Positions 33,013 through 48,760 of a stretch of DNA of 64,000 bases are shown piece after piece; within the stretch, counting starts at the first letter, position 1; each line of letters opens with the position of its first letter. This DNA comes from Minisyncoccota bacterium (lineage in GTDB: Bacteria > Patescibacteriota > Minisyncoccia > Phycocordibacterales > Phycocordibacteraceae), in NCBI GenBank assembly GCA_041663025.1, contig JBAZRE010000002.1, forward strand, positions 27,703 to 91,702. The letters run 5' to 3'. Below the pieces are notes generated by a model, which ran no database searches, was not told the origin of the DNA, and saw only the letters and a list, made by a program, of their open reading frames with translations. The position numbers were made by a program, and so were the translations under genes.

Positions 33013-33841
33013 TGACAGGTTGGCTGCGCGGCGGCGGCAGGGCCGCCGCCGCGGGCTCATCGCCTTTGGCGTTATTCTTTGCATCATATGTGGCGCGCTT
33101 ATTTGGGGACTTCAACAAAACACAGCGCGCATTGCGCGTGTGCAGATCTTTGGTGCAGATCAATCGTTGTCAGAGATTGCGCATACCGCGATGCAGGGGG
33201 AATATCTGGGAATCATTCCGCGTGACTCAATATTCTTTTTCCCAGAGGATCGTATTCGTGCAGACATTCTCGCAGCACACGCAGAGATTGCCGCAGTTTC
33301 AATATTCCGCAACGGCCTGACTGGTCTAACCATCAAAATAGATGATCGCATCCCCGTCGCACGGTGGTGTGGTCTCGCGCCTGACGCAACAAGGTTCGAC
33401 CTTAATGCAAGTTCCTCAAGGTCGAACCTTGTTACATCGAACTGCTACCTTTTTGATGTGAAGGGGTATATCTTCGCTGCTGCCGCAACAACCACACAAA
33501 CGATCAATTCCTTTGTTTTGTATGCGCCTCTTGCGAATGAGATTTTAGAACCACTACGTGCAACTATCGCGAATGCCGAAAAACTTCCCTCCGCTTTTGA
33601 CTTCGCACGCCAGCTCACAACCCTTGGTTCATCGGTCACGCGCATTATCCTACGCGATGGTGAGGTAGACACCTATCTCACAAGCGGCACGCGCATCACC
33701 TATCTTCTCGACGATGAACAGAATGCTTTTACCGCGCTGGTGTCTGCTCGTGCGAACATGAATCTCGCGGATGGCTCGGTTGAGTATGTTGATCTGCGTT
33801 TCGGCGGCAAGGTGTATCTGAAAAAGAAAGGTGATATTTAG
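32978..33841 (+). CDS. ftsQ: FtsQ/DivIB-like cell-division protein (POTRA domain)
   Basis: Basic N-terminus, single TM, POTRA-like VQIFGADQS..IKIDDRIPVARW. Start uncertain: ATG 32978 overlaps serS, and TTG 33017 is an alternative. Contains an in-frame palindromic insert. Confidence 0.55.
   Translation: MLGKLSSAERGSDRLAARRRQGRRRGLIAFGVILCIICGALIWGLQQNTARIARVQIFGADQSLSEIAHTAMQGEYLGIIPRDSIFFFPEDRIRADILAAHAEIAAVSIFRNGLTGLTIKIDDRIPVARWCGLAPDATRFDLNASSSRSNLVTSNCYLFDVKGYIFAAAATTTQTINSFVLYAPLANEILEPLRATIANAEKLPSAFDFARQLTTLGSSVTRIILRDGEVDTYLTSGTRITYLLDDEQNAFTALVSARANMNLADGSVEYVDLRFGGKVYLKKKGDI
33391..33430. repeat. palindromic element family 2 variant inserted in-frame in ftsQ-like gene
   Basis: aaggttcgacctt-aatgcaagttcctc-aaggtcgaacctt encodes TRFDLNASSSRSNLVT. 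Confidence 0.75.
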
Positions 33842-33883
33842 GGACATCGTAAGTCCCTCATGCAATTTGGACTTACGATGTCC
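33842..33883. terminator. palindrome family 4 hairpin (GGACATCGTAAGTCC..GGACTTACGATGTCC)
   Basis: 15-bp arms between the ftsQ-like gene and dus. A related copy lies inside dus at 34738-34779. Confidence 0.5.
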
Positions 33884-33891
33884 AAACATGG

Positions 33892-34983: not shown

Positions 34984-35015
34984 ACCTTGAGGATTCGGAT
35001 TTAAGGTTTAACCTT
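34976..35015. repeat. palindromic element family 2 variant spanning dus stop codon
   Basis: aaggttaaacctt-gaggattcggattt-aaggtttaacctt. A TCGAAC>TTAAAC variant creates the dus TAA stop. Confidence 0.75.
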
Positions 35016-35036
35016 GTTTTGCGTTATACTGCACCC

Positions 35037-36092
35037 ATGGCGCATCAGAGTTTATACCGGATACATAGACCGACAACATTTGCGGACGTGATAGGGCAAG
35101 AACATGTAACGAAGCCATTGGAGGAGGCAGTGAAGGCGAAGAAGATCGGCCATGCCTACCTCTTCGCCGGTACGCGAGGGTTGGGGAAGACTAGCGTAGC
35201 GCGCATCTTCGCTAGCGCGATCGGCTGCGGCGAGAATGATCTCTATGAAGTTGATGCCGCTAGTAATAATAGTGTTGAGGATATTCGAGCGCTCACCGAG
35301 GGCGTCTACACTTTACCTTTCCAATCTCCTTATAAAGTTTATATTCTCGACGAAGTGCACATGCTCTCAAAGAGCGCATGGAATGCTTTTCTTAAAACGC
35401 TTGAAGAGCCGCCAGCTCACGCAGTTTTTATTCTTGCCACTACTGAATTGGAGAAAGTCCCAGAGACCGTGCAGTCGCGCTGTCAGGTATTTGAATTTAA
35501 GAAGCCGACACGCGCCATCCTCGCTAAGATGACTGCGGCTGTGGCGAAAAAAGAGGGCTACACGCTCGCGCCTGATGCCGCCGACTTGATCTCGATGCTG
35601 GCCGATGGTTCATTCCGCGATGCTCTCTCGGTCTTGCAGAAAGTGCTGGGTTCATCAGCAGACAAAAAGTTATCGCGAGCAGAAGTAGAGCAGGCGACCG
35701 GCGCGCCGCGCCAAGAACAAGTGCATGCGCTCATAAACGCGCTCGCCGCGGGCGAGCGCGGGAAGGCTCTTGAAGCGATAGAGCAGGCAGCAAAAGCCGA
35801 TGCTGATATGAAGCTCTTCTTGCAGCTCGTGCTTGAAGCGCTTCGTGCAACCTTGCTCATCAAATTTGCACCCGACCTCCGCGCCTCACTCCAGAGCGAG
35901 CTCGGCGCGGACGAATTTGCCGCGCTTGAAAAATTCGCCCTATCAAATGTAGGACGTCCGACGTCCTACATTACGCATCAGACACTCCTGGCGTTTTTGA
36001 TCGCCGCCGATCGCATCCGCTATGCACCCATTCCCGTGCTGCCACTCGAATTGGCGATCTTGGAACTCTTTCCCGAAAACGCAACTAAGTGA
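35037..36092 (+). CDS. dnaX: DNA polymerase III subunit gamma/tau (short form)
   Basis: Clamp-loader AAA+ signature (GTRGLGKTS, DEVHMLS, SRC motif TVQSRCQVFEF). Contains an in-frame family-3 palindrome at 35947-35971 (encodes NVGRPTSYIT). Confidence 0.8.
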   Translation: MAHQSLYRIHRPTTFADVIGQEHVTKPLEEAVKAKKIGHAYLFAGTRGLGKTSVARIFASAIGCGENDLYEVDAASNNSVEDIRALTEGVYTLPFQSPYKVYILDEVHMLSKSAWNAFLKTLEEPPAHAVFILATTELEKVPETVQSRCQVFEFKKPTRAILAKMTAAVAKKEGYTLAPDAADLISMLADGSFRDALSVLQKVLGSSADKKLSRAEVEQATGAPRQEQVHALINALAAGERGKALEAIEQAAKADADMKLFLQLVLEALRATLLIKFAPDLRASLQSELGADEFAALEKFALSNVGRPTSYITHQTLLAFLIAADRIRYAPIPVLPLELAILELFPENATK

Positions 36093-37660
36093 TAATGTAT
36101 CTCTATTGGGAGATCGTCTAACGGTAGGACAGCGCCCTTTGAAGGCGTGAATCGGGGTTCGATTCCCTGTCTCCCAGCCCGAATAAAACTTGGGTCAGAT
36201 TCTGAAAAATTTTCCCGCGCGGCGCAGAGCGCCGCGTATGGTGGAGAAGGGATTTCTCGGACTTCTTTGTTATGCAAGTGCAGGTTCGAGCCGAAGAGTT
36301 TTTGGAGGGGGGATTTTTTGGAGGGGGTATCTTCTGATTTTGCTATTTCGTCCAGCATTGACGCCTCTTTTACCCATTCTCGCATCGGTTCGAGCCAGTG
36401 TCCGGCGTTCGCTTCAAGACGAGCCGTTTGCTCCTCGACCGACTTCTTCTCCAACACAAGAACGCGACGGCGCGCGAGGTAGTCCTCGCGCTCGATGTCT
36501 TGGGCGATATAGAGGTCGGTCAGGCGGTCGAGCTTGCGGGAAATGTCGTGGATTTTGTCCCGCAATTCTTGAACGAACGCCGCGGTCTGGAGAGACGAGG
36601 TATTTTCGTCTTCTGCTATCAACCTTTCAAATTCTGTCTGCCACGCCGAAGGCATCGCGTAGTTTCGGATTAACTCATCCAGTTGAGGTATTAGCGCTTC
36701 TTCTCGAACATACGGCTGGGAGCATGCACCTTTCTTTTTCGTACAGCGATAATAAACATAATGATGAGCGTTGCCGTTTTGCTGGTGCTTCGTCTTTTCT
36801 TCAGCCGTAATACCCATACCGCACTCGCCACAACGCAAAAGCCCACAGAGATCCTTTGGCTCGTTCTGGGCTTTCATCGGATGACCGCGTTCGACAATGA
36901 CTCGTTGCACTTTGTCGAATAGTCGCTTTTCAACGATGGGCGTATGTCGCCCTTCGCGTATTTCGCCGCCGTATGTAAAGAGGCCAACATAGAATGCATT
37001 GGTGAGAATGAACCTCACTCGGTCTTTGTGAAAATGGAGACCGCCAAAACTTCGCACTCCATTTTCATACATAAAATTAGAAATATCTTCAAGCCGCGAA
37101 TTACCTTTTGCATATAACTCGAACGCGGAGCGAATCACTTTTGACTTCTTGCGGTCAATAACAATAGTCTTCGCGCGTACATCATTCAAATAGCCGACAG
37201 GCGCAGTACTTGGGAATTCGCCACGCTTCACTTTGGCGCGCAAACCTCGCTTCACATTGGAACTCAAATCGCGAATAAACTGATTCGCCATGCCGAACTC
37301 TACCGACATCATCAACACATTGTCGCTCGGATAATGACTTCGGTCGTGCGTGCGAATATGCTGGATAATATTTTCTTGCAACAGCCAGCTTATCTGCCCG
37401 CCGTCCACCGGATTACGCGACAAGCGATCGAGCTTCCAACACACGATGCCCTGTGCCTCGCCCTTATGTATCCGCTTCAGCATTTCATTGAACACCGGAC
37501 GGCCGGGCATTTTCGCGCTCCGCTTCTCCACGAACTCCGCGACGACTTCTAACCTCTCGCTTTTGGCGAGCGCTCGTAATTCGGACAACTGCGCCTCAAT
37601 GGACAAAACTTGTTTGTCCTCAACATCGGTAGATTTTCGTGCGTAGAGAAAATAGCGCAT
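36020..37660 (-). CDS. large serine recombinase (resolvase catalytic domain + recombinase domain + zinc ribbon + coiled coil)
   Basis: N-terminal YARKSTDVEDKQVLSIEAQ with catalytic Ser, GIVCWKLDRLSRN, Cys cluster CGECG..C..C, and a long coiled-coil. The last roughly 100 codons read through repeat X and antisense tRNA-Gln, so the functional stop is uncertain. Confidence 0.75.
   Translation of the reverse strand: MRYFLYARKSTDVEDKQVLSIEAQLSELRALAKSERLEVVAEFVEKRSAKMPGRPVFNEMLKRIHKGEAQGIVCWKLDRLSRNPVDGGQISWLLQENIIQHIRTHDRSHYPSDNVLMMSVEFGMANQFIRDLSSNVKRGLRAKVKRGEFPSTAPVGYLNDVRAKTIVIDRKKSKVIRSAFELYAKGNSRLEDISNFMYENGVRSFGGLHFHKDRVRFILTNAFYVGLFTYGGEIREGRHTPIVEKRLFDKVQRVIVERGHPMKAQNEPKDLCGLLRCGECGMGITAEEKTKHQQNGNAHHYVYYRCTKKKGACSQPYVREEALIPQLDELIRNYAMPSAWQTEFERLIAEDENTSSLQTAAFVQELRDKIHDISRKLDRLTDLYIAQDIEREDYLARRRVLVLEKKSVEEQTARLEANAGHWLEPMREWVKEASMLDEIAKSEDTPSKKSPLQKLFGSNLHLHNKEVREIPSPPYAALCAARENFSESDPSFIRAGRQGIEPRFTPSKGAVLPLDDLPIEIHYHLVAFSGKSSKIANSSGSTGMGA
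36107..36177 (+). tRNA. tRNA-Gln (anticodon TTG)
   Basis: Acceptor TGGGAGA/TCTCCCA, D-arm GTCT/GGAC, anticodon stem GCGCC/GGCGT with loop CTTTGAA, T-loop GGTTCGATTCC. The 3' end abuts island repeat X. Confidence 0.8.
36178..36311. repeat. island repeat X (attL arm); identical in inverse orientation to 39303-39388, diverged further out
   Basis: 36178-36262 is the exact reverse complement of 39303-39388. Weaker similarity continues to about 36311 versus 39245. Confidence 0.8.
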
Positions 37661-37674
37661 AGGAGTATTATACA

Positions 37675-39159
37675 ATGACCATGAACATAGGACGGAACGA
37701 AAAATGCCCATGTGGAAGTGGTTTGAAATATAAAAAATGCCATATGGGAAAAGAACAAGATATGGGTAAAAATACCAAAAGATATCGTCATTTTTCGGGC
37801 GTTGTTTTCGATGGCTCTGGAGCCAATCTTTCGCTCTACGAAAAAAATATGACTTTGGTCGAAGCGATCATCGATATCTTTGGATTTACGGAAGGGCGAG
37901 ATTTAAGTGATATCAAGAGAACAGTCTCTCGCGAGCATGTAGCGGAATTGCATAAATTGGTGGCATGGCTTTGGCCACCTGATACGGACGTGACGAAATT
38001 TCTACCAGCCCCATCCAATAATTTGAGAGCACTCTATATGGGAAATATGCGGCCTCAAACAATTTTGAGAAGTGTCGGGAGATATTCGTTGTACTGCGAC
38101 GAAATACTGGTAATGGATCCTTTCATGAATCCATGGTTCATAGCACCTGACTACAATCCCATAATGCACCCAGAGGAGTACGTCTCTAATACATGGAAAT
38201 GGGTGTTATTTATTATCCAACTTGCACCATGGATATACGATAAACAGGTATTGTTGCTTCCAAACCCTCTCGACTTCGACTCGTCGTTGCGGAAAGAAAT
38301 GTGGGCTAGTGCGGAGAAACGATTAAATCCACAAAAGAACGATTTGCTGAAATTCCTCGAACAAGACGATTCCATGGGAGAAACTGCAAAAGAGGAATTT
38401 AAACGAACATGGATGTCTATTCCTGAATATGCACAACGAAAGAAAATAAAAGAGTTTGACAATAAAATGACGGAAGAAGAGGTCGATGGAATGATTAAGT
38501 ATATAGACAAAATGAAGGAAGAAGATCCTTACTTCGTGACAAATCCAAACGAAAAAGGAGGATTTGGTATCAGCACCCATACAATGGGCGGGAACTTGGA
38601 GCAGGGTTTATATATTTCTCAGCTAACCGGAGCTCATTTATACACAGATTTTGAATTTAGGTGGAGAGAGATTTTATCAGCTCAAACAGATACATCAGAA
38701 AAAAGCCCATGGAGTCCCATTGCGTATGGCTTCCAAAATCTCGATTTCAAATTTTTGGACGGCACAGATTTGAAATTCGTCCATAAAATAAAAGCAGACG
38801 GAAGATTGTCTAATTTGCGGAATTTCCTCCGAAAGACATGGAAAGAAGTATCAGCAGACGAGACACCAAATTATGAGAAGGCAAACAAACTTGCTTTGGA
38901 ATTTGCAGACGAACTGAAGGAACAGTATTCAAAAGCAGAGTCTGAATGGGAAGGTATAGACACAGATTTAACAAAATGGCTCTTGAGTAGAAGTGGGCTC
39001 GGGACCCTCGTTGCTACTGGAGGTGTAAATTGGACGATCCCCGCACTCGGCTTTGCAATGGAAGGCGTAAATCAGCTACTTACAGCACGGCATGAACGAA
39101 AGAATTTCAGGAAAAATGTACCACTTTCGGTCTTTGTTGATTTAAAAAAGAGAAAGTAA
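37675..39159 (+). CDS. SEC-C-motif protein of unknown function (494 aa)
   Basis: N-terminal CPCGSGLKYKKCH is a SEC-C zinc-binding motif. The rest has no recognised family. AT-rich gene, divergent from the recombinase with overlapping starts. Confidence 0.55.
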   Translation: MTMNIGRNEKCPCGSGLKYKKCHMGKEQDMGKNTKRYRHFSGVVFDGSGANLSLYEKNMTLVEAIIDIFGFTEGRDLSDIKRTVSREHVAELHKLVAWLWPPDTDVTKFLPAPSNNLRALYMGNMRPQTILRSVGRYSLYCDEILVMDPFMNPWFIAPDYNPIMHPEEYVSNTWKWVLFIIQLAPWIYDKQVLLLPNPLDFDSSLRKEMWASAEKRLNPQKNDLLKFLEQDDSMGETAKEEFKRTWMSIPEYAQRKKIKEFDNKMTEEEVDGMIKYIDKMKEEDPYFVTNPNEKGGFGISTHTMGGNLEQGLYISQLTGAHLYTDFEFRWREILSAQTDTSEKSPWSPIAYGFQNLDFKFLDGTDLKFVHKIKADGRLSNLRNFLRKTWKEVSADETPNYEKANKLALEFADELKEQYSKAESEWEGIDTDLTKWLLSRSGLGTLVATGGVNWTIPALGFAMEGVNQLLTARHERKNFRKNVPLSVFVDLKKRK

Positions 39160-39189
39160 AGGGAGCTTTGCTGATTAGAACTTTTCAGC

Positions 39190-39227
39190 GAAGGGGCTGG
39201 TGCGCGCACGGGTGGGAGGGGCAAGCA
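39190..39227. repeat. direct repeat DR1 (gaagggNctNNtgcgcgcacgggtgggagGGGCAAGCA)
   Basis: Matches 45423-45492 (DR2) apart from a 26-bp hairpin insertion in DR2. Confidence 0.6.
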
Positions 39228-39244
39228 CACTACGGGCGAGTTTG

Positions 39245-39554
39245 TGTTGTATTACCCCCTCCAAAAACTCTTCGGCTTCTGAATTTTGAACCTGCATTGC
39301 AAGTCAGAGAAATCCCTTCTCCACCATACGCGGCGCTCTGCGCCGCGCGGGAAAATTTTTCAGAATCTGACCCAAGTTTTATTCGGGCTACATTATACGA
39401 CCAAGTCCGAACTTTTTTCCAGCGCGCCCAATGATTACTCGCCCGCTCGCAGACTCGCGGGCTCGCCGCCGCGGACGGCGGCCCCTCGCTCCTGCCGCTC
39501 TCTATGCTTTGTTTTTTGGCGGGGGATGTCTTTGGAAAAGGAATGGAGCGGCAG
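39245..39554. repeat. internal inverted att-like block X'Y (reverse complement of Y'+X)
   Basis: 39245-39388 is the reverse complement of X, and 39387-39554 is the exact reverse complement of 45953-46120. The junction shares only AGC with both outer sites. Confidence 0.75.
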
Positions 39555-39611
39555 GGCGAGGGTCGATTTTGGGTAAATAGCCCTATTGCCCCTTATGTTA
39601 TTATTTCTTAT

Positions 39612-40451
39612 ATGCCCACGACGAACATAATTCGCGCTCTAGTAAACCTCGCGACAGCGAGAAATTTTGATCTCCCGGATGGTCCACAAGGGGCAAACCG
39701 AATTACAACCGTGGGTGCTCCGTTGGAATGCTTCATCAGAGATGCTTTTTGTAATTCCGCGCAAATTACGGATTTGCGCGAAAAAGAAACCGCCCATCGG
39801 GAGCATTTGTCATATCTCGGAAATTCAAAAAATCCGCCGGATTTTGTCATAAGAGCGGGCGATGCCGTAGAAGTTAAGAAAATCGAAAATCCGCTGTCAG
39901 GAATCGCGCTCAATAGTTCTTATCCTAAAGACCATATATACGTCGACGACCCGATGCTCTCCGCGGGATGCCGAGACTGTGAAGAAGGATGGCAACAGAA
40001 GGATTTAATTTATGCCATTGGAGTGGTTTCTGAAAATACAATCCAGTCCCTGCTATTCGTTTATGGAGATTGTTATGCAGCTAATCGCGAAGTATACGAA
40101 AGAATAAAGCAAAGAATTATCGCTGGGGTTGCACAATCGGAAGAAGTTGAATTCTCGGACACGAACGAACTTGCAAGGGTCAATCAAGTTGACCCGTTAG
40201 GCATTACTTATTTGCGAGTGCGAGGAATGTGGGGAATAGAAAATCCGCGCCGCGTTTTTGCTGACCTTAATTTCAATTCAAGAGAAGGTAGACCACTTGT
40301 TGCAACAATAATGCTCAGGTCAAAGTTTGAAAGTTTTCCTACCGAGGATAGGAATGCTCTAGCACAAGCTGCGGATAGGATTGAAGACATACAGATACGA
40401 AACCCTAACAACCCGGCACAGATGCTTGATGCAAAACTCATCGTCTTATGA
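39612..40451 (+). CDS. putative Type II restriction endonuclease (PD-(D/E)xK)
   Basis: NPPDFVIRAGDAVEVKK is a PD..x10..EVK catalytic motif. Overlaps the downstream C5-MTase by 4 nt. Start trimmed to ATG 39612. Confidence 0.55.
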   Translation: MPTTNIIRALVNLATARNFDLPDGPQGANRITTVGAPLECFIRDAFCNSAQITDLREKETAHREHLSYLGNSKNPPDFVIRAGDAVEVKKIENPLSGIALNSSYPKDHIYVDDPMLSAGCRDCEEGWQQKDLIYAIGVVSENTIQSLLFVYGDCYAANREVYERIKQRIIAGVAQSEEVEFSDTNELARVNQVDPLGITYLRVRGMWGIENPRRVFADLNFNSREGRPLVATIMLRSKFESFPTEDRNALAQAADRIEDIQIRNPNNPAQMLDAKLIVL

Positions 40452-41497
40452 AAATCATTTCTCTTTTTACTGGTGCTGGCGGACTTGATCTTGGGTTCAA
40501 GAAAGCTGGTTTTGACATTGTATGGGCAAATGAATACGACCCGGTAATTTGGGATACTTTTGAATCAAATTTCCCAGAGACGATACTAGATCGGAGAAGC
40601 ATAACTGACATACCTGCATCTGATGTTCCTGACGCATTTGGAATGATAGGCGGACCCCCGTGTCAGAGTTGGAGCGAAGCTGGAGCTGGTCGTGGAATTA
40701 ATGACAAGCGAGGTCAATTATTCTTTGAATACATCCGCCTCATTAAAGAAAAGCAACCGCTATTTTTTCTAGCCGAAAATGTTTCAGGCATTCTTTTTCC
40801 GCAACATGAAAAAGCATTTAGTACGATACTCAAGCAATTTAGCGATGTTGGCTACAATGTTAAATATCAACTATTGAATGCCAATGACTACGAGGTTCCT
40901 CAAGACCGCTTGCGCGTTATCGTAATCGGATATAGAAAAGACCTCGGTATTAGTTTTGAATTTCCAGAACCGCAACCCAAACGCCTTACTTTGCGCGATG
41001 CAATTTTTGATCTCCGCAACGCAAAACAAGCAAAAGAATTCAACAAGACAAACGGCGATGCACTTGAAATTCCAAATCACGAATATATGAATGGCGGTTT
41101 TTCAACGATTTATATGTCACGCAACCGAGTTCGTTCATGGGACGAACCGTCTTTCACTATTCAAGCCGGCGGTCGTCATGCTCCAATCCATCCGCAAGCG
41201 CCAAAAATGAAGTTCGTCTCGCAAAATGTGAGAATATTCGTTCCGGGTAAAGAAAAACTCTATCGCCGTTTATCAGTTCGCGAATGTGCACGGATACAAA
41301 CATTTCCTGACAACTTCATTTTCAAGTATAGAGATGTCGCAGACGGCTACAAGATGATAGGCAATGCAGTACCGGTCGAATTTGCTCATCACATTGGCAA
41401 AAAGATATATGCGGACCTTATTGCTGTAGGCAAGGTTCCTAGTCCTTACGACAAATTGTTCAAGGACAAGAAAACTCAAAATGTTCATCTACAATGA
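40448..41497 (+). CDS. dcm: DNA (cytosine-5)-methyltransferase
   Basis: Motif I FTGAGGLDLGF, motif IV GGPPCQSWS, motif VI ENV, and C-terminal GN(A/S)VPV-like motif. Confidence 0.9.
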   Translation: MKIISLFTGAGGLDLGFKKAGFDIVWANEYDPVIWDTFESNFPETILDRRSITDIPASDVPDAFGMIGGPPCQSWSEAGAGRGINDKRGQLFFEYIRLIKEKQPLFFLAENVSGILFPQHEKAFSTILKQFSDVGYNVKYQLLNANDYEVPQDRLRVIVIGYRKDLGISFEFPEPQPKRLTLRDAIFDLRNAKQAKEFNKTNGDALEIPNHEYMNGGFSTIYMSRNRVRSWDEPSFTIQAGGRHAPIHPQAPKMKFVSQNVRIFVPGKEKLYRRLSVRECARIQTFPDNFIFKYRDVADGYKMIGNAVPVEFAHHIGKKIYADLIAVGKVPSPYDKLFKDKKTQNVHLQ

Positions 41498-41527
41498 GAG
41501 AAAAACTAGTCTAATTAACTAGACCAT

Positions 41528-43162
41528 ATGTATATATCACACGCGAAAATTTCTAATTTCAGGGCTCTACAAGAGGTAGATGTTCCTCTTAATAAATGCT
41601 CGATTCTACTCGGAGAAAATGATGTGGGGAAAACATCTTTTCTCTTGGCACTTGACCGATTTTTTGCAAACAAGAAGATTTCAGACGAGGAAGATTTCTT
41701 TAATCGGGATACTTCGGCGGATATAACTTTAACGCTTACTTTCTCTGATTTACCTACAGACCCAACACTAGATTCAATTCAAAAAGCAGACGGGACGATT
41801 ACAGTTCGAAAAACCTTTTCATTTAATGAGACACCCGATACCAAAGCAATTATGGACGATTCTTCCACAAAGGCTGTGGACAAGTCGATTCTAAACGACT
41901 TACTATCAAGCGACGCGTTCCACTTCATTCCCGTGCGCAGAGATCTCAGTGTTCAATTTTCGATGACAAAAACTTCACTTCTAGGGAAAACTTTACGGGT
42001 ACGAATGCACGAAGCAATTAAAAATAATGACGCCGACCAATCTTTAGGGAAAGTTGAACAATTGCTTGTCGAAGCGATTAAGGGACCGCAGGAAGAATTA
42101 CAGGCTTTTTTAAGAGAGCAAATGCACAACGAAGACATGCGTCTCGTTTTCGACGCGCTAAATGTTGACCCAATAGAGGGGGTTTCGTTTAAAGTGAAAC
42201 TGGGCGATGACAAGATTGAAGATATTCTTGTGGAAAATCGCGGTGCCGGAACACAAAACAACCTAATAATCGCCTTATTCAGGCTCGTTGCTGGTCTTCA
42301 TGTTGAAGGAAAACTAATCTTTGCTATGGAAGAGCCAGAGAACAGTCTTCATCCTAAAGCACAAAGGCAACTATTTTCAGTACTCCAAGAAGTCAGCGAA
42401 AAATCTCAAGTCATTATTACTACTCACTCGCCAGTCTTTCTAGAAAGGAGCAGTTTTGAAAATAACATTATCCTTACCCGAACGGCAAAAGGAAATACTG
42501 TGGCTAAAGTATTTGACCATACACAACTAGAGGAGCTTAGAACAGATTTGGGTATCCGTCCTTCTGATGCTCTCCTTAAGGGTGGAGGTAATTGCGCAAT
42601 TCTTGTAGAAGGCAATACTGAGGAGGAGGCATATCCAATCTTTATGGAAATGCTTGGTCTAAGCGAATTCAAGCTGGGAATTGCGATAGTTAATATGCGC
42701 GGTAGCGATACTTCATTGGTTAGTAACACTGCTCGATTGCTAGGAGCATATGATATCCCGTGTGTGGTAGTACTAGATCAAGATGCCAAAGCAACTGCTG
42801 ATGATATCGTACGCGAAAGTAATGCTGGTCTTAAAAATGTTAAGAAAGTCTTTTGCTTAACCCAAGGAACAATGGAGGACTACTATCCTTTAGATATAGT
42901 GGCTGAAGTTATCAATCAAAGTTTTAATCCGACTCAGGCAGTAGTAGTTGCTGATTTTGATGATTCAAAACACGGTGCGGATAGGCTTAGTGACTTTAAG
43001 AAAGTTATGTACGAGAAAGGATTGGGTAAATCGCTAGGATACCTCAAAAGATTAATAGGTTCGAACGGTACTAAAATTATGAAAGAGAAAGGATTACCCG
43101 TGCCCGAAGAACTGGCGGGAGTGTTTGCAGAGGTAGTCAAGATTGTAAATGAAGGAGTTTAG
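41528..43162 (+). CDS. OLD-family / PARIS-like ATP-dependent nuclease (ABC-type ATPase + TOPRIM)
   Basis: Walker A GENDVGKTS, Walker B/D-loop VIITTHSP after EPENSLHP, C-terminal TOPRIM (ILVEGNTEE..VVVLDQDAKA). AT-rich. Confidence 0.7.
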   Translation: MYISHAKISNFRALQEVDVPLNKCSILLGENDVGKTSFLLALDRFFANKKISDEEDFFNRDTSADITLTLTFSDLPTDPTLDSIQKADGTITVRKTFSFNETPDTKAIMDDSSTKAVDKSILNDLLSSDAFHFIPVRRDLSVQFSMTKTSLLGKTLRVRMHEAIKNNDADQSLGKVEQLLVEAIKGPQEELQAFLREQMHNEDMRLVFDALNVDPIEGVSFKVKLGDDKIEDILVENRGAGTQNNLIIALFRLVAGLHVEGKLIFAMEEPENSLHPKAQRQLFSVLQEVSEKSQVIITTHSPVFLERSSFENNIILTRTAKGNTVAKVFDHTQLEELRTDLGIRPSDALLKGGGNCAILVEGNTEEEAYPIFMEMLGLSEFKLGIAIVNMRGSDTSLVSNTARLLGAYDIPCVVVLDQDAKATADDIVRESNAGLKNVKKVFCLTQGTMEDYYPLDIVAEVINQSFNPTQAVVVADFDDSKHGADRLSDFKKVMYEKGLGKSLGYLKRLIGSNGTKIMKEKGLPVPEELAGVFAEVVKIVNEGV

Positions 43163-43180
43163 TAAAGTGGTCAGCCCGAT

Positions 43181-43474
43181 ATGAACTACCCTATCTTCAT
43201 CATCGTCGCTCTAGCTGGAATCGCTCTCGGGATGTATCTCGCACGGCGAGGTAAGAGCGATTTAATTTCTGAACAAGAGAAACGGAAAACCGAGAATAAG
43301 AAAAAGATTCTTGAATTTGTGCAGGCAAACGGAAAAATACAGAACAACGATGTGGAAAAACTAGCCAGAGTATCCAACGCAACCGCCGAGCGGTATTTGG
43401 ACGAGCTAGAAAAGGAGGGGAAACTGGTACAGCACGGCGACATTGGTCAAGGCGTTTTCTATAGCGCAAAATAA
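43181..43474 (+). CDS. membrane-anchored DeoR-like winged-HTH protein
   Basis: N-terminal TM (IFIIVALAGIALGMYL). C-terminal DVEKLARVSNATAERYLDELEKEGKLV matches the DeoR/HTH_11 pattern (VS..TirRdL..Le..G.l). Confidence 0.5.
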   Translation: MNYPIFIIVALAGIALGMYLARRGKSDLISEQEKRKTENKKKILEFVQANGKIQNNDVEKLARVSNATAERYLDELEKEGKLVQHGDIGQGVFYSAK

Positions 43475-43502
43475 GCACATTTTTGACGAATAACTCAACG
43501 GG

Positions 43503-43838
43503 TTGAGTTATTCGTACAGCCAGTCATCAACCTGCTATGCTAGGGTAATGTATCCGAAACTGACATCAGAGGAATTTCAGGCCCTTCTACTGTATAAGAG
43601 GGATTTCTTAGATTTATACGACATCAAAACGATTCCCCTTTATAGGCAAGTAGCTACCGGCTTACATCACCTCGCTGTATCCAAATCGATTGGAGGATAT
43701 GTGAATTGGAGAACGCACGAATGGAACGAAGTGAAAAAGAATATACAAGAAGCGACAATTCACTATTTGAAGGCGTGTTTGTATGACCCGAAATATCTCT
43801 CCTTCTCGGCAACTCGCGAAGCTTTCGGGTTGAGTTAA
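43503..43838 (+). CDS. hypothetical protein (111 aa)
   Basis: ORF preceded by a palindromic terminator-like hairpin (gacgaataactcaac-ggg-ttgagttattcgtac). No family recognised. Confidence 0.35.
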   Translation: MSYSYSQSSTCYARVMYPKLTSEEFQALLLYKRDFLDLYDIKTIPLYRQVATGLHHLAVSKSIGGYVNWRTHEWNEVKKNIQEATIHYLKACLYDPKYLSFSATREAFGLS

Positions 43839-43841
43839 TCG

Positions 43842-44780
43842 CTAGGGCCAGCAAACATCAGGCGTTTCGCCTATGTCTGATTCAAGCTTCTGCCAGACCT
43901 CTGCCTTCGTGCCGAGTTGATCAATAAGCCCATTACGGAGCGCCATCGCGCCGAGCATCGTGGAGCCGTCTGCGAGCGCGGTCACTTTCGCGACCGAAAG
44001 ATTGCGATTCGTCGCCACGGCATTGATGAAATTCTGGTGGAGAATGTCGAGATCGCGCTGTATCAGTGAACGCTCGGTCGCGGTCAGTGGCTTGTCGGAG
44101 CTTCCCATATCTTTATACAGACCCGCTGTAAGTTGGTTGTAGGTCAGACCGTCTTTCAAGTTCTGTTTTGCATTATCAACATACGAGGTCGTAACCCCGA
44201 TGCCACCGACATCTGAATTTTCTGAAGCGATAATGGTGTCGGCCGCACTCGCGATCCAGTATGCGGCTGAATCGGCGCTCTCGCGCACCCATGCGATGGA
44301 GGGCTTACCGAAATTCTTCACCGCGCTGGCTATCTCGTCGGCGGCAACTGGAGAACCGCCGCCTGAATCGATTTCAAGAACGAGTGCTTTAATCTGCGAA
44401 TTGCTCGACGCCTCTTCAATCGCCCAAATGACATCTTCAGATGAAGTGATAGTGTCGCAGTAGTTCAGGCCATCGCTGGGCGGATTATTTTCAGCATCGG
44501 GTTTATACGTGGCGATGCAGTCCCGTATCTCGATACCAATCGCGTTACAATTTTCATCAATGCCTCCGGTGTCTGAAGATTCCGAATCATACGTACTGTC
44601 ATCTGAACCTGTGGGGATAGCGTAGATAATTAAAAATCCCGCGACTGTTGCAACAGTCATGAGTAAGAATATTGAAACAAGAAGACCGACACTCGTAAAT
44701 CGTGATTCAAGCCATGTGAATGGCCACACGAGACCAGAAAAGAATTCCTTTATCTTGGCATAGGCATTCTTGTCAATCAT
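43842..44780 (-). CDS. S49-family (SppA-like) serine peptidase, membrane-anchored
   Basis: N-terminal TM. DSGGGSPVAADE..SAADTIIASENSDVGGIGV resembles the SppA/ClpP-fold catalytic region. Confidence 0.55.
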   Translation of the reverse strand: MIDKNAYAKIKEFFSGLVWPFTWLESRFTSVGLLVSIFLLMTVATVAGFLIIYAIPTGSDDSTYDSESSDTGGIDENCNAIGIEIRDCIATYKPDAENNPPSDGLNYCDTITSSEDVIWAIEEASSNSQIKALVLEIDSGGGSPVAADEIASAVKNFGKPSIAWVRESADSAAYWIASAADTIIASENSDVGGIGVTTSYVDNAKQNLKDGLTYNQLTAGLYKDMGSSDKPLTATERSLIQRDLDILHQNFINAVATNRNLSVAKVTALADGSTMLGAMALRNGLIDQLGTKAEVWQKLESDIGETPDVCWP

Positions 44781-44821
44781 TGTTTCGAGTATAGCACTCG
44801 CGTTTAGGTTAGAATAAAAGC

Positions 44822-45331
44822 ATGCCTGAAGAAACTACACCTCAAGTCCCTGAACCTGCGACAGAGCCGACCGTGCCTCCACAGGAGACGCCGCCTGCTC
44901 AAGCGCCTGAAGCCGTCCCAAGCGAGCTGACAGTCGAAGTTTCTCCACCCGTAGAGGTCCAAACGGATCAGCCCCCAACCCAAACGGGTCAAATACCACC
45001 AAATGACCCGTTGCCTCCGGAAAGTGAACCGATTGAACCCGCCCCCGAGCCGCCGTCTGCGGCGGCTCCAGCACAAACCGGCATCCTGCACTCCGCTCGC
45101 GATCTCCTGAACAAAGCCCGCATCTCAATTCAAGACCGCAAGCGCAAGAAGCGAGATAAAATCATGGAAGCACTGACGAAGAAAACCAAAATCACCAACG
45201 ACGAAGTTGAAAAACTCCTGCATGTTTCGGATTCAACAGCGGAGCGGTATCTCTCGGTGCTTGTGAAAGAAGGAAAAATTAAACAAGACAGAAGAACCGG
45301 GGCGGGCGTAAGTTATTCAAGAGCGCCCTAA
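44822..45331 (+). CDS. Pro-rich protein with C-terminal DeoR-like winged HTH (paralog of 43181 C-terminus)
   Basis: C-terminus KITNDEVEKLLHVSDSTAERYLSVLVKEGKIKQ parallels 43181..43474. N-terminal 100 aa are PxxP-rich and low complexity. Confidence 0.5.
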   Translation: MPEETTPQVPEPATEPTVPPQETPPAQAPEAVPSELTVEVSPPVEVQTDQPPTQTGQIPPNDPLPPESEPIEPAPEPPSAAAPAQTGILHSARDLLNKARISIQDRKRKKRDKIMEALTKKTKITNDEVEKLLHVSDSTAERYLSVLVKEGKIKQDRRTGAGVSYSRAP

Positions 45332-45338
45332 AATTTTT

Positions 45339-45410
45339 GCCCTCGTAAGCTAACGGATAAACTGCCTCGATTCTAGCGAGGACTTGGGAGTTCGAATCTT
45401 CCCGAGGGCG
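45339..45410 (+). tRNA. tRNA-Arg (anticodon TCT)
   Basis: Acceptor GCCCTCG/CGAGGGC, anticodon stem CCTCG/CGAGG with loop ATTCTAG, T-loop GTTCGAATC. No encoded CCA. Lies inside the island. Confidence 0.8.
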
Positions 45411-45952
45411 CAGATATTTCTTGAAGGGAGTCTTCGCATGCGCGCACGGGTGGGAGAAGTCCGCGCGTAATCGCGCGGACTTGGGGCAAGCATTTGCATT
45501 TGCCTCGGGGCTGTTTCCGCTATGAGCGTCCATGGCGAAGGACGAGCGCCGACCCTCATCGAAGCATCAGGGTTTCGAAGCGGAAGCGACAAGATAAACA
45601 CAAAAATGAAAACGAGGAGAGGGGTTGTGCGATGGGCGGAATCCGAAGGAACGAGGATGAGCCCGAGCTGGGGAGAGGATTCCTTCCTCTCCCCAAACAA
45701 GAGCCGCCCCGAGCTCCGCTCAGCAGAGCGGAGTGCGAGGATAAGGCGGCACAAACGAATCTAGGCGCTCGTAGCCATAGCGGAAACAGCCCCGAGGCGG
45801 ATGCCGAGGGGTGGATTGCCTTTGCCAATGGACGACAACTACAGAGCGGAGAAAACAGCTCGAGACCACAGGAAATTTGCATTTGGGCTGAACGGCTCAT
45901 TTCTTCCCATGTGAGCCGTTAGGCGGGAAGAAGTGAGCCGTTCCCCGAGCCA
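45411..45952. other. about 540-bp GC-rich non-coding region with multiple inverted repeats (candidate structured RNA or cis-acting site)
   Basis: Only short, mutually overlapping Arg/Gly-rich ORFs. Inverted repeats include ctcggggctgtttccgctatg (45472) versus catagcggaaacagccccgag (45775), ggggagagg-attcctt-cctctcccc, and gcatttgcatttgcc versus ggaaatttgcatttggg. Confidence 0.45.
45423..45492. repeat. direct repeat DR2 with inserted hairpin (aagtccgcgcgtaatcgcgcggactt)
   Basis: Direct match to DR1 at 39190-39227, starting 13 bp after tRNA-Arg. Confidence 0.6.
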
Positions 45953-46120
45953 CTGCCGCTCCATTCCTTTTCCAAAGACATCCCCCGCCAAAAAACAAAG
46001 CATAGAGAGCGGCAGGAGCGAGGGGCCGCCGTCCGCGGCGGCGAGCCCGCGAGTCTGCGAGCGGGCGAGTAATCATTGGGCGCGCTGGAAAAAAGTTCGG
46101 ACTTGGTCGTATAATGTAGC
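45953..46120. repeat. island repeat Y' (attR arm), exact reverse complement of 39387-39554
   Basis: 168/168 identity. Followed immediately by the ASCH-gene leader (putative B' flank). Confidence 0.8.
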
Positions 46121-46129
46121 TAATTATTT

Positions 46130-46471
46130 ATGAAAAACTGGACGTTACGGTTTCGGGCGGTTGATAAAGATAATTTTGACGAAGTAAAGATTGGTATCAA
46201 ATCTATCGAAACGCGTGCCGCGACAATTAAATATCAGCCAATAAAAATTAGTGACACTCTCACCTTTGTTTGCGGGAAAGAAAAGTGTGTTAAGAAGATT
46301 AGTAAGAAATTTCATTGGCCAAGCATTGATGCGATGGTGAAGGGGGTTGATTTCAAAAAAATAATGCCCTCGGTCGATTCCGTAGAGGAAATGAAAAAGA
46401 TCTACGCCTCATATCCCGACTACGAAAAGAAAATCAAAGAACATGGATTATTTGGATTTGAGCTTGAATAG
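46130..46471 (+). CDS. ASCH/PUA-like domain protein
   Basis: About 110 aa. The KIGIKSIETRA..D motif resembles the ASCH GxKxxExR signature. Confidence 0.45.
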   Translation: MKNWTLRFRAVDKDNFDEVKIGIKSIETRAATIKYQPIKISDTLTFVCGKEKCVKKISKKFHWPSIDAMVKGVDFKKIMPSVDSVEEMKKIYASYPDYEKKIKEHGLFGFELE

Positions 46472-46660
46472 AGCAAGGTCAAAAATCGGGTATACTTCCT
46501 CTATGAAAAACCTCAAACTCGGCACCAACTTCTCTATCTTCATTATTTTCTTCGGCGTGGCGGCTCTGGATGCGCTGCAGACACAAAATTGGCTTCGGGT
46601 CGCATTTTGGGTGGGTATCGGCGCATACTTCTTCTGGGCAGATAAAAAGAAATCCTAATT

Positions 46661-47083
46661 ATGAAAATTGGCATTATCGGCAGCATGCAATATACCGAGC
46701 AGATGGTGAAGGCGCGTGATGATTTGCGGGCGCTCGGACATGACGCTTTTCTTACTGACCTGCACAAAACTCTTGTGGGCAAGAGCGATGAAGAAAAAGA
46801 GGTAATAAAAATAGAGCAAAAAAATAATCAAGACGCTATCCGAGAATTTTGGCACCAGATGCAAGGCGCAGATGCGGTGTTAGCGGTCAATCTCGATAAG
46901 CATGGTATCAAAAATTATATTGGTGGAAACACTCTTATGGAGATCGGATTCGCGCATGTGTTGAATCAGAAGATTTATCTCCTGAACCCGATTCCCTGCA
47001 TCTCGTTCTACAAGTCTGAAATAGAAGCAATGCGCCCTACTATCCTCAACGGTGACTTGTCTCTCATCAAGGTTAAACCTTGA
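46661..47083 (+). CDS. nucleoside 2-deoxyribosyltransferase-like protein
   Basis: MKIGIIGSM Rossmann start, GADAVLAV..GGNTLMEIGFA resembles the Nuc_deoxyrib_tr fold (sD.v.a...G.D.GT.fEiGyA). Confidence 0.5.
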   Translation: MKIGIIGSMQYTEQMVKARDDLRALGHDAFLTDLHKTLVGKSDEEKEVIKIEQKNNQDAIREFWHQMQGADAVLAVNLDKHGIKNYIGGNTLMEIGFAHVLNQKIYLLNPIPCISFYKSEIEAMRPTILNGDLSLIKVKP

Positions 47084-47285
47084 TATCTACTGCTCAATGA
47101 ATCGCGCGGAAGGCGCGGATGTGTCGTTGTCGCCGGAACTCCCACAGCTCTCTCTTGCGAGCAAAAAAGGCAAAGAGCCTCTCAATGGATTTTTTCATTC
47201 CCTAGATAGACGATGATGATAGCTGATTCTTACATATGATAAAAAACGGCCACGCACGTGACCGTTTTTTACTACGTGTTCGTTG

Positions 47286-48074
47286 CTAGATAGTAACCGT
47301 CTGGCCGAGGGCGCCAAGTAGATAGTTCGCGAGAAGTGCTGTGGCGCTTGAAGAATGTCCGATCCCGCCAAATGCAGCGGTAGCGTCTGTGCCGCAGAGT
47401 GACACGATCGCCTGCACACCGCCGGGATGATATGGAACATAGGCAGTAATGTTATACACATTGCTGCCAATAGTTAACCAACAACTATTCTGAGTGTTGT
47501 GCGTCGCGATAACGGCTGACGTTAAGGTGACCTGATTTGTTGTTGACAGTGGTGCGGTAGTAAACGATGTTTGGCTTGAGGTAGCCGAGCCGTTTGCAGC
47601 GCTTACCGATGCGACAACCACATAATACGTGGTGCTTGCGGTAAGACCGGTAAGGCCGATCGAATGGCTCTTCACTGGCGTTGCGCTGGTCACTGACGAA
47701 GCAGCGAGCAAGCTCAGTGGCGAGGTTGTGCCGAAGTACACCTTGCTTGAAGAGGTTACATTCGTCGTCCAGCTAACGAGAGCGCTTGAGGTGCTCACGT
47801 TGGTAATAGCGAGTCCTCGCAGAGCGAGAGTAGTGGCTGGAGTTGTCGTTGATGTTCGATGCTCACCTCTCCCCTCGTCATCGTCCTGATCGCCCTTTTC
47901 GCCGCGTTCTCTCACATGAGTATGCGCGAACGCGGACTTCCCGTGTATCTTCGGGTGACGGTCTCCATTTTTATTGTTCAAGTGTTCTCCACCATCCGCT
48001 AAAACGAATGCTGGAGAGAGGAGTAGTGCCGCAAAGAGGACGAGGCTGGATATTTTTTTGGTAAATGTTGTCAT
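47286..48074 (-). CDS. secreted protein with His/Asp-rich region, Ig/FN3-like beta domain and C-terminal cytochrome b5-like heme-binding domain
   Basis: Signal peptide. C-terminal CWLTIGSNVYNITAYVPYHPGG..GTDATAAFGGIGHS carries the b5 HPGG heme-ligand motif and a second His. Confidence 0.55.
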   Translation of the reverse strand: MTTFTKKISSLVLFAALLLSPAFVLADGGEHLNNKNGDRHPKIHGKSAFAHTHVRERGEKGDQDDDEGRGEHRTSTTTPATTLALRGLAITNVSTSSALVSWTTNVTSSSKVYFGTTSPLSLLAASSVTSATPVKSHSIGLTGLTASTTYYVVVASVSAANGSATSSQTSFTTAPLSTTNQVTLTSAVIATHNTQNSCWLTIGSNVYNITAYVPYHPGGVQAIVSLCGTDATAAFGGIGHSSSATALLANYLLGALGQTVTI

Positions 48075-48223
48075 AATGATTGTCGTATATTACGCGGTTA
48101 ATTTAGGCCTAAGGTTGCGCAGAGTGCGCCACTTCTTATATACTTGACCTCTCACTCATAAGGGAGACGGTAGTGCTCGGGTATCCTTACCGTAAGAATG
48201 TGTGCCATGATGCGTCTCAAGAT

Positions 48224-48760
48224 ATGGAACAAGATATTTCAAAAAACCAATTCATTCAGCTCTACACCAATGAATCTGATGCGATATACAGATTCTGCCT
48301 TTTGAGGACATCTGATAAGGATGTGGCGGTTGATCTGATGCAAGACACTTTTATGCGATTCTGGAATGTTCTTTCGCAGGGTGAGAAGAAAGTTGAGAAC
48401 AAACGAGCGTTTCTCTTCACCGTCGCGCGAAATAGTATCATTGATTGGTACCGGAAGAAGAAAACACTCTCGCTCGATGCGTTGGCAGAAGGGTCAGAAA
48501 CAGACGCCGAAACATTTATGCCAGTCGGTCAAAAGAAGGAGGACATAGAAATGACGCATGAGGCCAAATTTCTTCTGGAGAGAATAAGAGAACTCGATCC
48601 GCTCTACCAACAAGTCGTGTATCTCAGATTCGTCGAAGGTCTCGGGCCTAAAGATATCGCAGAAATTATCGGGGAGTCAGCGAACGTCGTGTCAGTGCGT
48701 ATCAATCGGGGATTACAGCAATTACGGAAAGTGGCGGGGTATGATGAAGAACAACCATAA
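48224..48760 (+). CDS. ECF-type RNA polymerase sigma-70 factor
   Basis: Region 2 (LMQDTFMRFW..RNSIIDWYRKK) and region 4 HTH (GPKDIAEIIGESANVVSVRINRGLQQLR). Confidence 0.8.
   Translation: MEQDISKNQFIQLYTNESDAIYRFCLLRTSDKDVAVDLMQDTFMRFWNVLSQGEKKVENKRAFLFTVARNSIIDWYRKKKTLSLDALAEGSETDAETFMPVGQKKEDIEMTHEAKFLLERIRELDPLYQQVVYLRFVEGLGPKDIAEIIGESANVVSVRINRGLQQLRKVAGYDEEQP

Follow-up and report, generated by a model that had tools for sequence, protein, structure and literature searches.

A defence gene block of a Candidatus Paceibacterota bacterium is very probably the interior of a mobile element inserted at a tRNA-Gln gene

Why should a Type II restriction-modification (R-M) system, an ATPase-TOPRIM nuclease, two winged helix-turn-helix (wHTH) proteins and a membrane peptidase lie side by side in the genome of a bacterium of the Candidate Phyla Radiation (CPR)? 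This question is raised by positions 39612-45331 of a 64,000-nt stretch of contig JBAZRE010000002.1 (assembly GCA_041663025.1), here called the window, in whose numbering all coordinates are given; labels from L004 to L136 denote the related loci that were compared with it. All seven open reading frames (ORFs) listed for this block in an earlier reading of the sequence, the original prediction, were found at their positions and on their strands. Three further public assemblies carry a 6.4-kb stretch with the block at 100% identity and therefore the block is no assembly artefact. Comparison with the related loci indicates that the block is very probably the interior of an integrated mobile element of ~9.9 kb (36176-46120), which sits at the 3' end of a tRNA-Gln gene. 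Judged by close relatives of the S49, wHTH and dnaX genes, the organism is a Candidatus Paceibacterota bacterium. Details of the features are presented in Table 1.

Relatives with an empty site, in which dnaX is 86-90% identical and the synteny is conserved on both sides, define the insertion. In L134 (dnaX 90% identical), tRNA-Gln(ttg) is followed after 2 nt by the start of the ASCH gene, with the junction ctcccc-AGC-cagtATG, and in L136 the alignment to the window runs up to position 36188 and resumes at 46502. Since both relatives lack the block between syntenic flanks, 36176-46120 can be identified as an insertion of ~9.9 kb. It contains a recombinase, a protein with a SEC-C motif, the R-M system, the OLD nuclease, both wHTH genes (one with a transmembrane (TM) helix, named TM-wHTH, and a proline-rich (Pro-rich) paralog), a 111-aa gene, an S49 peptidase, tRNA-Arg(tct) and a structured noncoding stretch. 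The gene content given in the original prediction agrees with this, but the inverted repeat, the recombinase, the tRNA attachment site, the structured RNA and the mobile element as such had been overlooked.

The ends of the insertion are formed by repeat arms. The left end, AGCCCGAATAAAAC, begins at the last bases of tRNA-Gln and opens the outer arm a, of which 89 nt (36176-36264) are 99% complementary to 39301-39389, with gapped similarity reaching 36329/39253. At the right end, the outer arm b' and the internal arm b (39387-39554) form a 100% complementary inverted repeat of 168 nt bracketing the block; the a/a' inverted pair brackets the recombinase and the SEC-C protein, and a' and b adjoin each other inside the element. 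On the reverse strand, this internal junction reads as the end of b' running without a seam into the start of a (...TATAATGTAGCCCGAATAAAAC...), and it has the form ...GTCGTATAATGT-AGC-CCGAATAAAAC... The seamless junction is present in six loci (the window, L107, L064, L071, L062 and L074). The predicted attP is …TATAATGT AGC CCGAATAAAAC…, and attB would be the 3' end of tRNA-Gln.

Identical termini are seen in independent insertions with unrelated flanks (the window, L107, L064, L071 and L076). The left end follows directly after a tRNA in the window, in L107 (another tRNA-Gln) and in L064, arm a being conserved in the latter two, and the right end, ...GTCGTATAATGTAGC, stands beside unrelated flanks in four insertions (the window, L107, L071 and L076). 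Independent contigs assembled by MEGAHIT at k141 end exactly 141 nt into both arms, and the paired arms occur also in L071, L107, L076 and L064. On these two grounds the inverted repeats are taken to be real, and an assembly artefact was ruled out. The best promoter-like matches of the region (10/12) are located in the two b arms (39421->39392 in the internal copy and 46086-46115 in b') and face outward, and the a arms hold terminator-like hairpins, the one of the internal copy lying at 39337-39351.

Table 1. Features of the element and its attachment target (positions in the whole window)
Feature	Positions	Strand	Evidence and remarks
Large serine recombinase, presumed integrase	36020-37711	-	Resolvase 3e-21, Recombinase 3.5e-13, Zn_ribbon_recom 4.6e-10
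tRNA-Gln(ttg), chromosomal attachment target	36106-36180	+	ARAGORN, Rfam; attL 36176-36180
Outer repeat arm a, left terminus	36176-36329	+	Minus-strand terminator-like hairpin 36228-36214
494-aa protein, N-terminal SEC-C zinc motif, second variable slot	37675-39159	+	Pfam: SEC-C motif only
Intact internal repeat copy a'.b	39253-39554	.	attP-like a/b boundary 39385-39392; outward promoter-like site and terminator-like hairpin
Conserved 18 nt GGCGAGGGTCGATTTTGG, left edge of cargo slot	39555-39572	+	Common to the window, L071/L062, L052 and L102
NgoPII-family Type II restriction endonuclease, cargo	39612-40451	+	Pfam RE_NgoPII PF09521 1.2e-94
C5-cytosine DNA methyltransferase, partner of the endonuclease, cargo	40448-41497	+	PF00145 8.8e-96, TIGR00675 1.2e-82
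Class 1 OLD ATPase-TOPRIM nuclease, 544 aa, cargo	41528-43162	+	AAA_15 1.3e-38, AAA_21 1.5e-18, OLD-like_TOPRIM 1.4e-9
TM-wHTH, 97 aa, N-terminal TM helix, annotated 'DUF977 family'	43181-43474	+	HTH_24 9e-7
111-aa protein, occasional backbone passenger	43503-43838	+	No family match
Membrane S49 (SppA-type) peptidase, 312 aa, N-terminal TM segment	43842-44780	-	PF01343 2e-35
Pro-rich wHTH paralog, 169 aa, second conserved backbone gene	44822-45331	+	phmmer 4e-13 to the 97-aa protein
tRNA-Arg(tct), carried on the element	45339-45411	+	ARAGORN, Rfam
Large structured RNA candidate, ~530 nt	45424-45958	+	Covariation; may reach into b' to ~46070
Outer repeat arm b', right terminus	45953-46120	+	attR 46118-46120; outward promoter-like site facing the host ASCH gene

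The same comparison bears on a different account, in which the locus is a chromosomal defence hot spot where the wHTH pair, the RNA, tRNA-Arg and the S49 gene are part of the host core and mobility is limited to the R-M and OLD genes, perhaps together with the recombinase. Such an account would fit the host-like GC content of the S49, tRNA-Arg and Pro-rich wHTH genes (0.50-0.55, as compared to 0.41-0.45 in the cargo), the many TM-wHTH loci that have no recombinase within reach, and a conservation of TM-wHTH as high as that of a core gene. However, the empty sites of L134 and L136 are devoid of the whole 36.18-46.12 kb, including the wHTH genes, S49, tRNA-Arg and the RNA, and for this reason the hot-spot account was rejected. 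The right terminus shared by the four insertions is located past the RNA, and TM-wHTH is present at least four times on one 693-kb contig, along with two recombinase modules and at least two copies of the RNA. We regard it as very improbable that the backbone is a resident of the chromosome, and the integrated element remains the preferred reading.

The presumed integrase has CcrB and XisF as its nearest NCBIfam families, and its true start is likely near 37660. Homologs occupy the same position and strand in L052, L064, L085, L107 and L112 and are inverted in L122, and in five genomes the recombinase module directly adjoins the 3' end of a tRNA, which is tRNA-Gln in two of them and Glu, Phe and Lys in one each. 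What stands next to the recombinase varies among the elements (214-486 aa, unrelated): L064, for instance, has a 486-aa P-loop protein there, and L062 one that is DUF3800-like. The SEC-C protein found at this place in the window may be a further unrecognised defence gene. The recombinase ORF of the window meets no stop until 36020, crossing arm a and running antisense through tRNA-Gln into the end of dnaX. In the circular form proposed below, the same frame would run into a stop 14 codons inside b (...SFIRATLYDQVRTFFQRAQ*; compare ORF 39168-39434), and the C-terminal tail of the recombinase would therefore be altered by integration.

The repeat arms suggest how the element might be built. The recombinase presumably inserted it at the 3' end of tRNA-Gln, with AGC as the core. 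Its circular form would contain two inverted copies of a unit of ~300 nt, with the attachment site at the centre of the unit, at the a|b boundary, where the bases AGC are shared. Integration would split one copy into the outer arms a and b' and leave the other copy (a'.b) intact inside. The two copies would divide the element into two arcs, the first with the recombinase and the variable gene and the second with the cargo slot and the backbone. In L122 the cargo arc is inverted relative to the recombinase arc, and hence both isomers exist; homologous recombination between the repeat copies could flip the arcs.

Perfect inverted repeats around a cargo arc also invite the idea of an invertible switch, by which defence or flanking genes would undergo phase variation. 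The 168-nt arms with their 100% identity, the two arc orientations found in nature (the window versus L122), a recombinase gene beside the arc and the location of the region's best promoter-like sites within the repeat arms are all in keeping with it. However, the two promoter-like sites are identical and both point outward, so that inversion alters no promoter-gene junction, and an attP-bearing unit split by integration accounts for the repeats in full. Moreover, all four assemblies of the strain show one orientation or cannot resolve the orientation, and we know of no large serine integrase that inverts attP-type sites. A switch of this kind is quite unlikely, and we prefer the reading of a repeat unit split by integration.

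Beyond GGCGAGGGTCGATTTTGG the sequences turn cargo-specific, which allowed us to localize the cargo slot of the element from 18 nt past the inner repeat to the start codon of TM-wHTH, its right edge. The contents of the slot were surveyed in 80 metagenomic loci carrying a TM-wHTH gene. The gene upstream of TM-wHTH is co-directional in 59 of 68 loci, with a gap of 50 nt or less in 44, and 48 of 75 immediate upstream genes are singletons. By Pfam, the upstream genes include components of type I, II, IIG/ISP and III R-M systems, Mrr, GmrSD and Vsr, and further reverse transcriptases, SocA/Panacea, NADAR-DarT1 and helicase-nuclease fusions. Among 33 immediate upstream neighbours scanned individually, 16 have a Pfam match, and 14 of these 16 are of R-M, toxin-antitoxin or defence type. 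L073 has the S49-bearing backbone of the window with a different R-M system, and L102 has the same NgoPII cargo as the window. Judged from these gene contents, the slot holds unrelated defence cassettes in different genomes. Calling the block cargo, as the original prediction did, was thus apt, for its genes occupy a variable slot of a mobile element. The companion claim that the wHTH genes are tied to the R-M and OLD genes did not hold, since they co-occur with many unrelated defence cassettes. An integron-like cassette array was ruled out by the gaps of 18-30 nt between the cargo genes, which have no repeated sites. Cargo might be exchanged by homologous recombination in the conserved flanks or by movement of the whole element.

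Taken alone, the R-M and OLD genes are ordinary and add new members to known kinds. The predicted pair of a PD-ExK endonuclease and a C5 methyltransferase, overlapping by 4 nt, was confirmed by the RE_NgoPII and PF00145 profiles and by motifs. The endonuclease matches PF09521 over nearly its full length (residues 4-262 against positions 1-256 of 262) and the PADLOC model REase_II at 7e-93, and contains the catalytic motif PD(76-77)...E87-V-K89. In the methyltransferase, FTGAGG at 7, GGPPCQ at 68, ENV at 110, QDR at 152 and GNAV at 305 can be recognized, and thus the canonical motifs I, IV (PCQ), VI, VIII and X are all found. With this endonuclease and a fully motif-bearing methyltransferase in adjoining, overlapping genes, the pair resembles NgoPII/HaeIII-type Type II systems without notable difference, the GGCC specificity being assigned by family only. 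If that specificity, suggested by membership in the NgoPII family, is correct, the methyltransferase would protect GGCC sites and the endonuclease would cut unmodified invading DNA. GGCC is the most depleted of eight 4-base palindromes tested in the window (observed/expected ratio 0.68), and the R-M and OLD genes (39612-43162) contain no GGCC site as compared to 3.9 expected. Across the whole window GATC and TCGA are depleted too, which hints at further R-M activities in the genome.

The 544-aa protein encoded 30 nt downstream of the R-M system had been described as OLD or a fused AriA-AriB. The first part of this description stands, as AAA_15, AAA_21 and OLD-like_TOPRIM matches identify an ATPase-TOPRIM protein of the OLD kind, but the PARIS part does not, as there is no DUF4435. 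Among solved structures, 6P74, the Class 1 OLD of Thermus scotoductus (TsOLD), is the best match, at 1.7e-19 across ATPase and TOPRIM. GajA chains, which at 575-598 aa are longer, as expected of Class 2 relative to Class 1, match over the ATPase alone and more weakly (~1e-11), and the PADLOC AriA model covers only residues 1-304, the ATPase half. No DUF4435/AriB signal was obtained in the protein or among the listed PADLOC hits, Pfam giving OLD-like_TOPRIM instead. Its neighbours are the methyltransferase and TM-wHTH, with no GajB-like or UvrD/PcrA-like helicase, reverse transcriptase/noncoding RNA or AriB beside it, and no helicase was found in the whole element or beside the OLD homologs of L130, L131 and L132. 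Because it matches TsOLD in full, AriA only in the ATPase half, and lacks both DUF4435 and a helicase, the protein is, by its sequence, a stand-alone Class 1 OLD. A PARIS assignment was rejected on the limits of the AriA match and the lack of an AriB-type DUF4435 TOPRIM, and a Gabija assignment on the lack of an adjacent helicase and the ATPase-limited GajA match.

Residues of the OLD protein were mapped against the published catalytic residues of TsOLD (PMC7049728). The ATPase contains Walker A K35, Walker B E268/E269, D-loop H275 and H-loop H300, of which K35, E268/E269 and H300 align with TsOLD K34, E276 and H310. In the TOPRIM domain, E361, E365, D417 and D419 align with TsOLD E377, D381, D431 and D433, and hence the metal-A residues and the first metal-B residue are conserved. 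For TsOLD S478, E480 and R487 the HMMER alignment stops at residue 421; T448-x-E450 is a candidate, with no basic residue seven positions further on. The protein would accordingly combine an ATP-binding ABC head with a two-metal TOPRIM DNase. It shares with other Class 1 OLD proteins (P2 Old, TsOLD and Vibrio cholerae OLD; PMC7049728, PMC10568477, PMC12392090) the ABC ATPase and TOPRIM in one chain without a partner gene. Class 1 OLD genes have been described as not proximal to other defence genes (PMC10568477); in contrast, the present subfamily adjoins Type II R-M in three of four contexts and rides a mobile element, although isolation from defence genes is a matter of description and not of mechanism.

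These contexts raise the possibility that OLD and R-M are functionally coupled, for example with OLD as a back-up nuclease once R-M is inhibited. It would then resemble PARIS, which senses the anti-restriction protein Ocr. In favour of coupling, OLD of this subfamily adjoins Type II R-M systems, unrelated to each other, in the window, in L131 (Vsr, an MvaI/BcnI-type endonuclease and a C5 methyltransferase) and in L132 (an MjaI-type system with an N4/N6 methyltransferase). However, the R-M family is a different one each time, and the closest OLD homolog (L130, 78% identical) stands solo among housekeeping genes. Defence genes cluster in islands anyway, and other members of the element family have R-M without OLD. 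Coupling is thus unlikely in our view, and we favour R-M and OLD acting independently as a presumably layered defence.

Downstream of the cargo, TM-wHTH, the Pro-rich wHTH and the RNA form a conserved backbone, probably transcribed by read-through from the cargo, whereas S49, the 111-aa gene and tRNA-Arg are lineage-specific passengers. More than 700 proteins make up the TM-wHTH family; their identity is 73-87%, almost all have a length of 97-98 aa, and they occur in Paceibacterota, Kaiser-, Uhr- and Roizmanbacteria. The AlphaFold2 model of the window protein comprises a TM helix, a long helix and the wHTH (mean confidence score, pLDDT, 77). A Foldseek search against the PDB returned generic wHTH proteins only (E ~2e-3), including plasmid centromere binders and MarR-type regulators. 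The wHTH of the Pro-rich protein is C-terminal and 43% identical to the 97-aa protein, making the two paralogous. Homologs of the Pro-rich protein are 166-218 aa long and start with 'MPPEE...'; of 41 loci whose downstream sequence is long enough, 15 have one at a distance of 66-78 nt downstream of TM-wHTH. As the Pro-rich wHTH is the usual downstream partner and S49 is the neighbour in only 2 of 52 non-redundant loci, the conserved pair, as far as gene order tells, is TM-wHTH with Pro-rich wHTH. The pair and the RNA could act in the maintenance, partition or regulation of the element and might do so as a protein-RNA complex.

The TM wHTH protein, the membrane S49 peptidase on the opposite strand and the Pro-rich wHTH paralog of the original prediction were all recovered (HTH_24, PF01343 and phmmer), and the 111-aa ORF, for which no family could be assigned there, gave no family match in profile searches. 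The peptidase scores 122 bits against PF01343 (cut-off 24.9) and 154.3 against TIGR00706 (SppA_dom), just below the cut-off of 155.45, and a hydrophobic N-terminal segment is visible in its sequence. Close relatives are encoded in metagenome-assembled genomes of Paceibacterota. S49 and the 111-aa gene are inserted between the two wHTH genes in the window, as they are in L073; S49 takes this position in L004 too, and a homolog of the 111-aa gene directly follows TM-wHTH in L114/L122.

It was proposed earlier that S49 cleaves the membrane-tethered wHTH protein, releasing a transcription factor that would switch on the neighbouring defence genes. Both proteins do have N-terminal TM segments and lie close together in the window, and their adjacency recurs in L004, L073 and one more locus. 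However, conservation lends such regulated proteolysis no support: S49 is downstream of TM-wHTH in just the two loci counted above, and most S49 relatives have no wHTH neighbour, among them L007-L011 and L005, where S49 stands among homologs of window core genes from 1.4-9 kb with no wHTH nearby. TM-wHTH stays 73-87% identical in lineages without S49 nearby, and it lies downstream of the cargo, whereas regulators usually lie upstream. In addition, a 97-aa protein of N-out/C-in topology already has its wHTH in the cytoplasm, while the active sites of SppA-type peptidases are on the outer side. We therefore give this proposal very little credence; judged from its distribution, S49 is confined as a passenger to one sublineage of the element.

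The 540 nt after tRNA-Arg (45412-45952) are conserved at 78-93% nucleotide identity in about 30 loci, and in most loci 2-10 nt separate the start of the conserved stretch from the stop codon of the Pro-rich wHTH gene. Structure was assessed in an alignment of 13 sequences, for which RNAalifold gives a fold of 117 pairs in 18 helices, including a long-range helix of 30 bp. Compensatory double changes occur at 25 pairs, as compared to 3-8 covarying pairs in controls with partners slid by 1-3 columns; the share of paired cells is 97.5%, falling to 40-49% when partners are slid, and none of 500 shuffles reached the observed values. The G-U pairs place the RNA on the + strand, and its hairpins run on into b', with covariation visible in the alignment. 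A protein-coding reading of 45424-45958 was ruled out by single-nucleotide indels that are compensated in the partner strand and by G-U pairs valid on the + strand only. A tRNA gene with a group I intron, an idea taken from PMC13011429, was ruled out because the 2-10 nt after the stop codon leave no room for a 5' exon. A search of Rfam 15 (4227 models) was negative at E<=1 for 34000-48500, and for 45400-46130 nothing credible emerged at E<=10; ARAGORN found no tmRNA, and the conserved noncoding stretch matched neither RNase P nor other known RNA families. So far the RNA has been found in Paceibacterota-like CPR contigs only.

Two features accompany the RNA. An exact 18-nt direct repeat, TGCGCGCACGGGTGGGAG, is present at 39201-39218 and 45439-45456. 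The second copy is the first hairpin of the structured RNA, and the first lies in the conserved spacer from the SEC-C gene to the inner repeat and is followed by GGGCAAGCA, resembling the 5' region of the RNA. It may be a partial second copy of the RNA 5' domain. A tRNA-Arg(tct) is also located between TM-wHTH and the RNA in L107 (8431-8503) and near the module in L070, L100, L119 and L123; the tRNA travelling with the wHTH/RNA module is often paired with tRNA-Phe.

Several observations weigh against our interpretation of the locus. Neither an excised circle nor an attP-only molecule was observed, and the element contains no recognisable replication, conjugation or packaging genes. Housekeeping-like genes (S49 and tRNA-Arg) are aboard, as is seldom the case in an element of small size. 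The Pro-rich partner and the RNA are missing from about half of the TM-wHTH loci, and in many loci no recombinase lies within 8 kb; it follows that either the family is heterogeneous or many copies have decayed. No relatives of TM-wHTH were found in IMG/VR viral contigs, and a phage or provirus origin was rejected on this ground. With respect to the cargo, 17 of the 33 individually scanned upstream genes have no Pfam match, so that defence cargo is shown for the annotated half only, and the depletion of GGCC is modest, its ratio being near that of TCGA (0.73). The functions proposed for the wHTH pair and the RNA are conjecture, the fold search having given generic wHTH matches only.

The chromosomal surroundings show further traces of mobile DNA. 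A tyrosine-integrase element (11020-13963) follows the same dnaX-proximal tRNA-Gln in L135, which makes this tRNA a hot spot for different elements, and L134 has a 245-aa LAGLIDADG-like ORF (11106-11843) between dnaX and the tRNA. In L071, an isolated second copy of the 21-nt left-end sequence AGCCCGAATAAAACTTGGGTC is found 82 nt beyond the right end (7506-7610) and may be the scar of an earlier or tandem insertion. The ASCH gene and a 140-aa gene on the host side of the window (46130-47083) are low in GC (0.38 for ASCH) and have homologs inside the cargo region of L074 (1962-5441); they may be remnants of an older island. A contig of sample ERZ27249449 with dnaX, recombinase and SEC-C genes (L042), which ends at window position 39325, differs from window positions 30535-39325 at 55 sites (99.4% identity), while the cargo-arc contig of the same sample is 100% identical to the window. 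This contrast may reflect strain heterogeneity or one cargo arc common to several strains.

CPR bacteria (Patescibacteria) make up a large share of bacterial diversity. Their genomes are tiny, CRISPR is absent from most of them, and they presumably depend on R-M systems. To our knowledge their mobile elements are almost unknown. If the present reading is right, the cargo slot distributes very diverse defence systems among organisms mostly without CRISPR, and for a family of small defence-shuffling elements the locus supplies precise boundaries, the site of attachment, its empty counterpart and a set of related loci for comparison. The predicted attP/attB together with the serine integrase could become a genetic tool for CPR bacteria, for which we know of none at present. 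The RNA of ~530 nt would be a new candidate among the few large bacterial RNAs of unknown function, with two candidate protein partners.

How does the element compare with known systems? In the literature on CPR mobile elements, DUF977 and CPR structured RNAs, as far as our incomplete search covered it, no description of the element or the RNA was found. What appears to be new is the architecture of the element and the RNA, which has no match in Rfam. The RNA is similar to the large ornate RNAs ROOL, GOLLD, HEARO and OLE in its length of more than 500 nt, its many covarying helices, an adjacent tRNA and its residence on a mobile element; it differs from them in having no Rfam 15 match, in being confined so far to CPR and in its position directly after the wHTH gene pair. 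With integrons and framed defence hot spots the element shares a recombinase gene divergent from the slot, unrelated co-directional cassettes and conserved sides. In contrast to integrons, it has no attC-like sites between the cargo genes, its slot moves with the whole element and its recombinase is of the serine type.

The yeast 2-micron plasmid and plastid genomes have two large inverted repeats that split the circle into two flipping arcs. The inferred circle resembles them in its two inverted repeat copies and two unique arcs, and in the occurrence of both orientations (the window versus L122). The resemblance is one of geometry only: there is no Flp-type recombinase, flipping would probably proceed by homologous recombination, and no counterpart of 2-micron copy-number amplification is claimed. 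As a tentative proposal, which we hold somewhat more likely to fail than to stand, these elements may constitute an undescribed CPR family of 2-micron-like flipping two-arc circles with an exchangeable defence slot, in which the wHTH pair and an RNA of ~530-650 nt form a ribonucleoprotein for maintenance, segregation or transfer.

Among described systems, tRNA-targeting integrative elements come closest, for example the tycheposons of Prochlorococcus (bioRxiv 10.1101/2020.12.28.424599) and the integrative and conjugative elements of actinomycetes (AICEs, PMC2440964). Like these, the element is small, integrates at tRNA 3' ends, combines a conserved backbone with variable cargo and uses several tRNA targets across lineages. 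It differs from them in its CPR host and large serine recombinase, and in its attachment site, which occupies the centre of a ~300-nt unit of which there are two inverted copies. In place of recognisable replication or transfer genes, its backbone consists of the wHTH pair and the large structured RNA.

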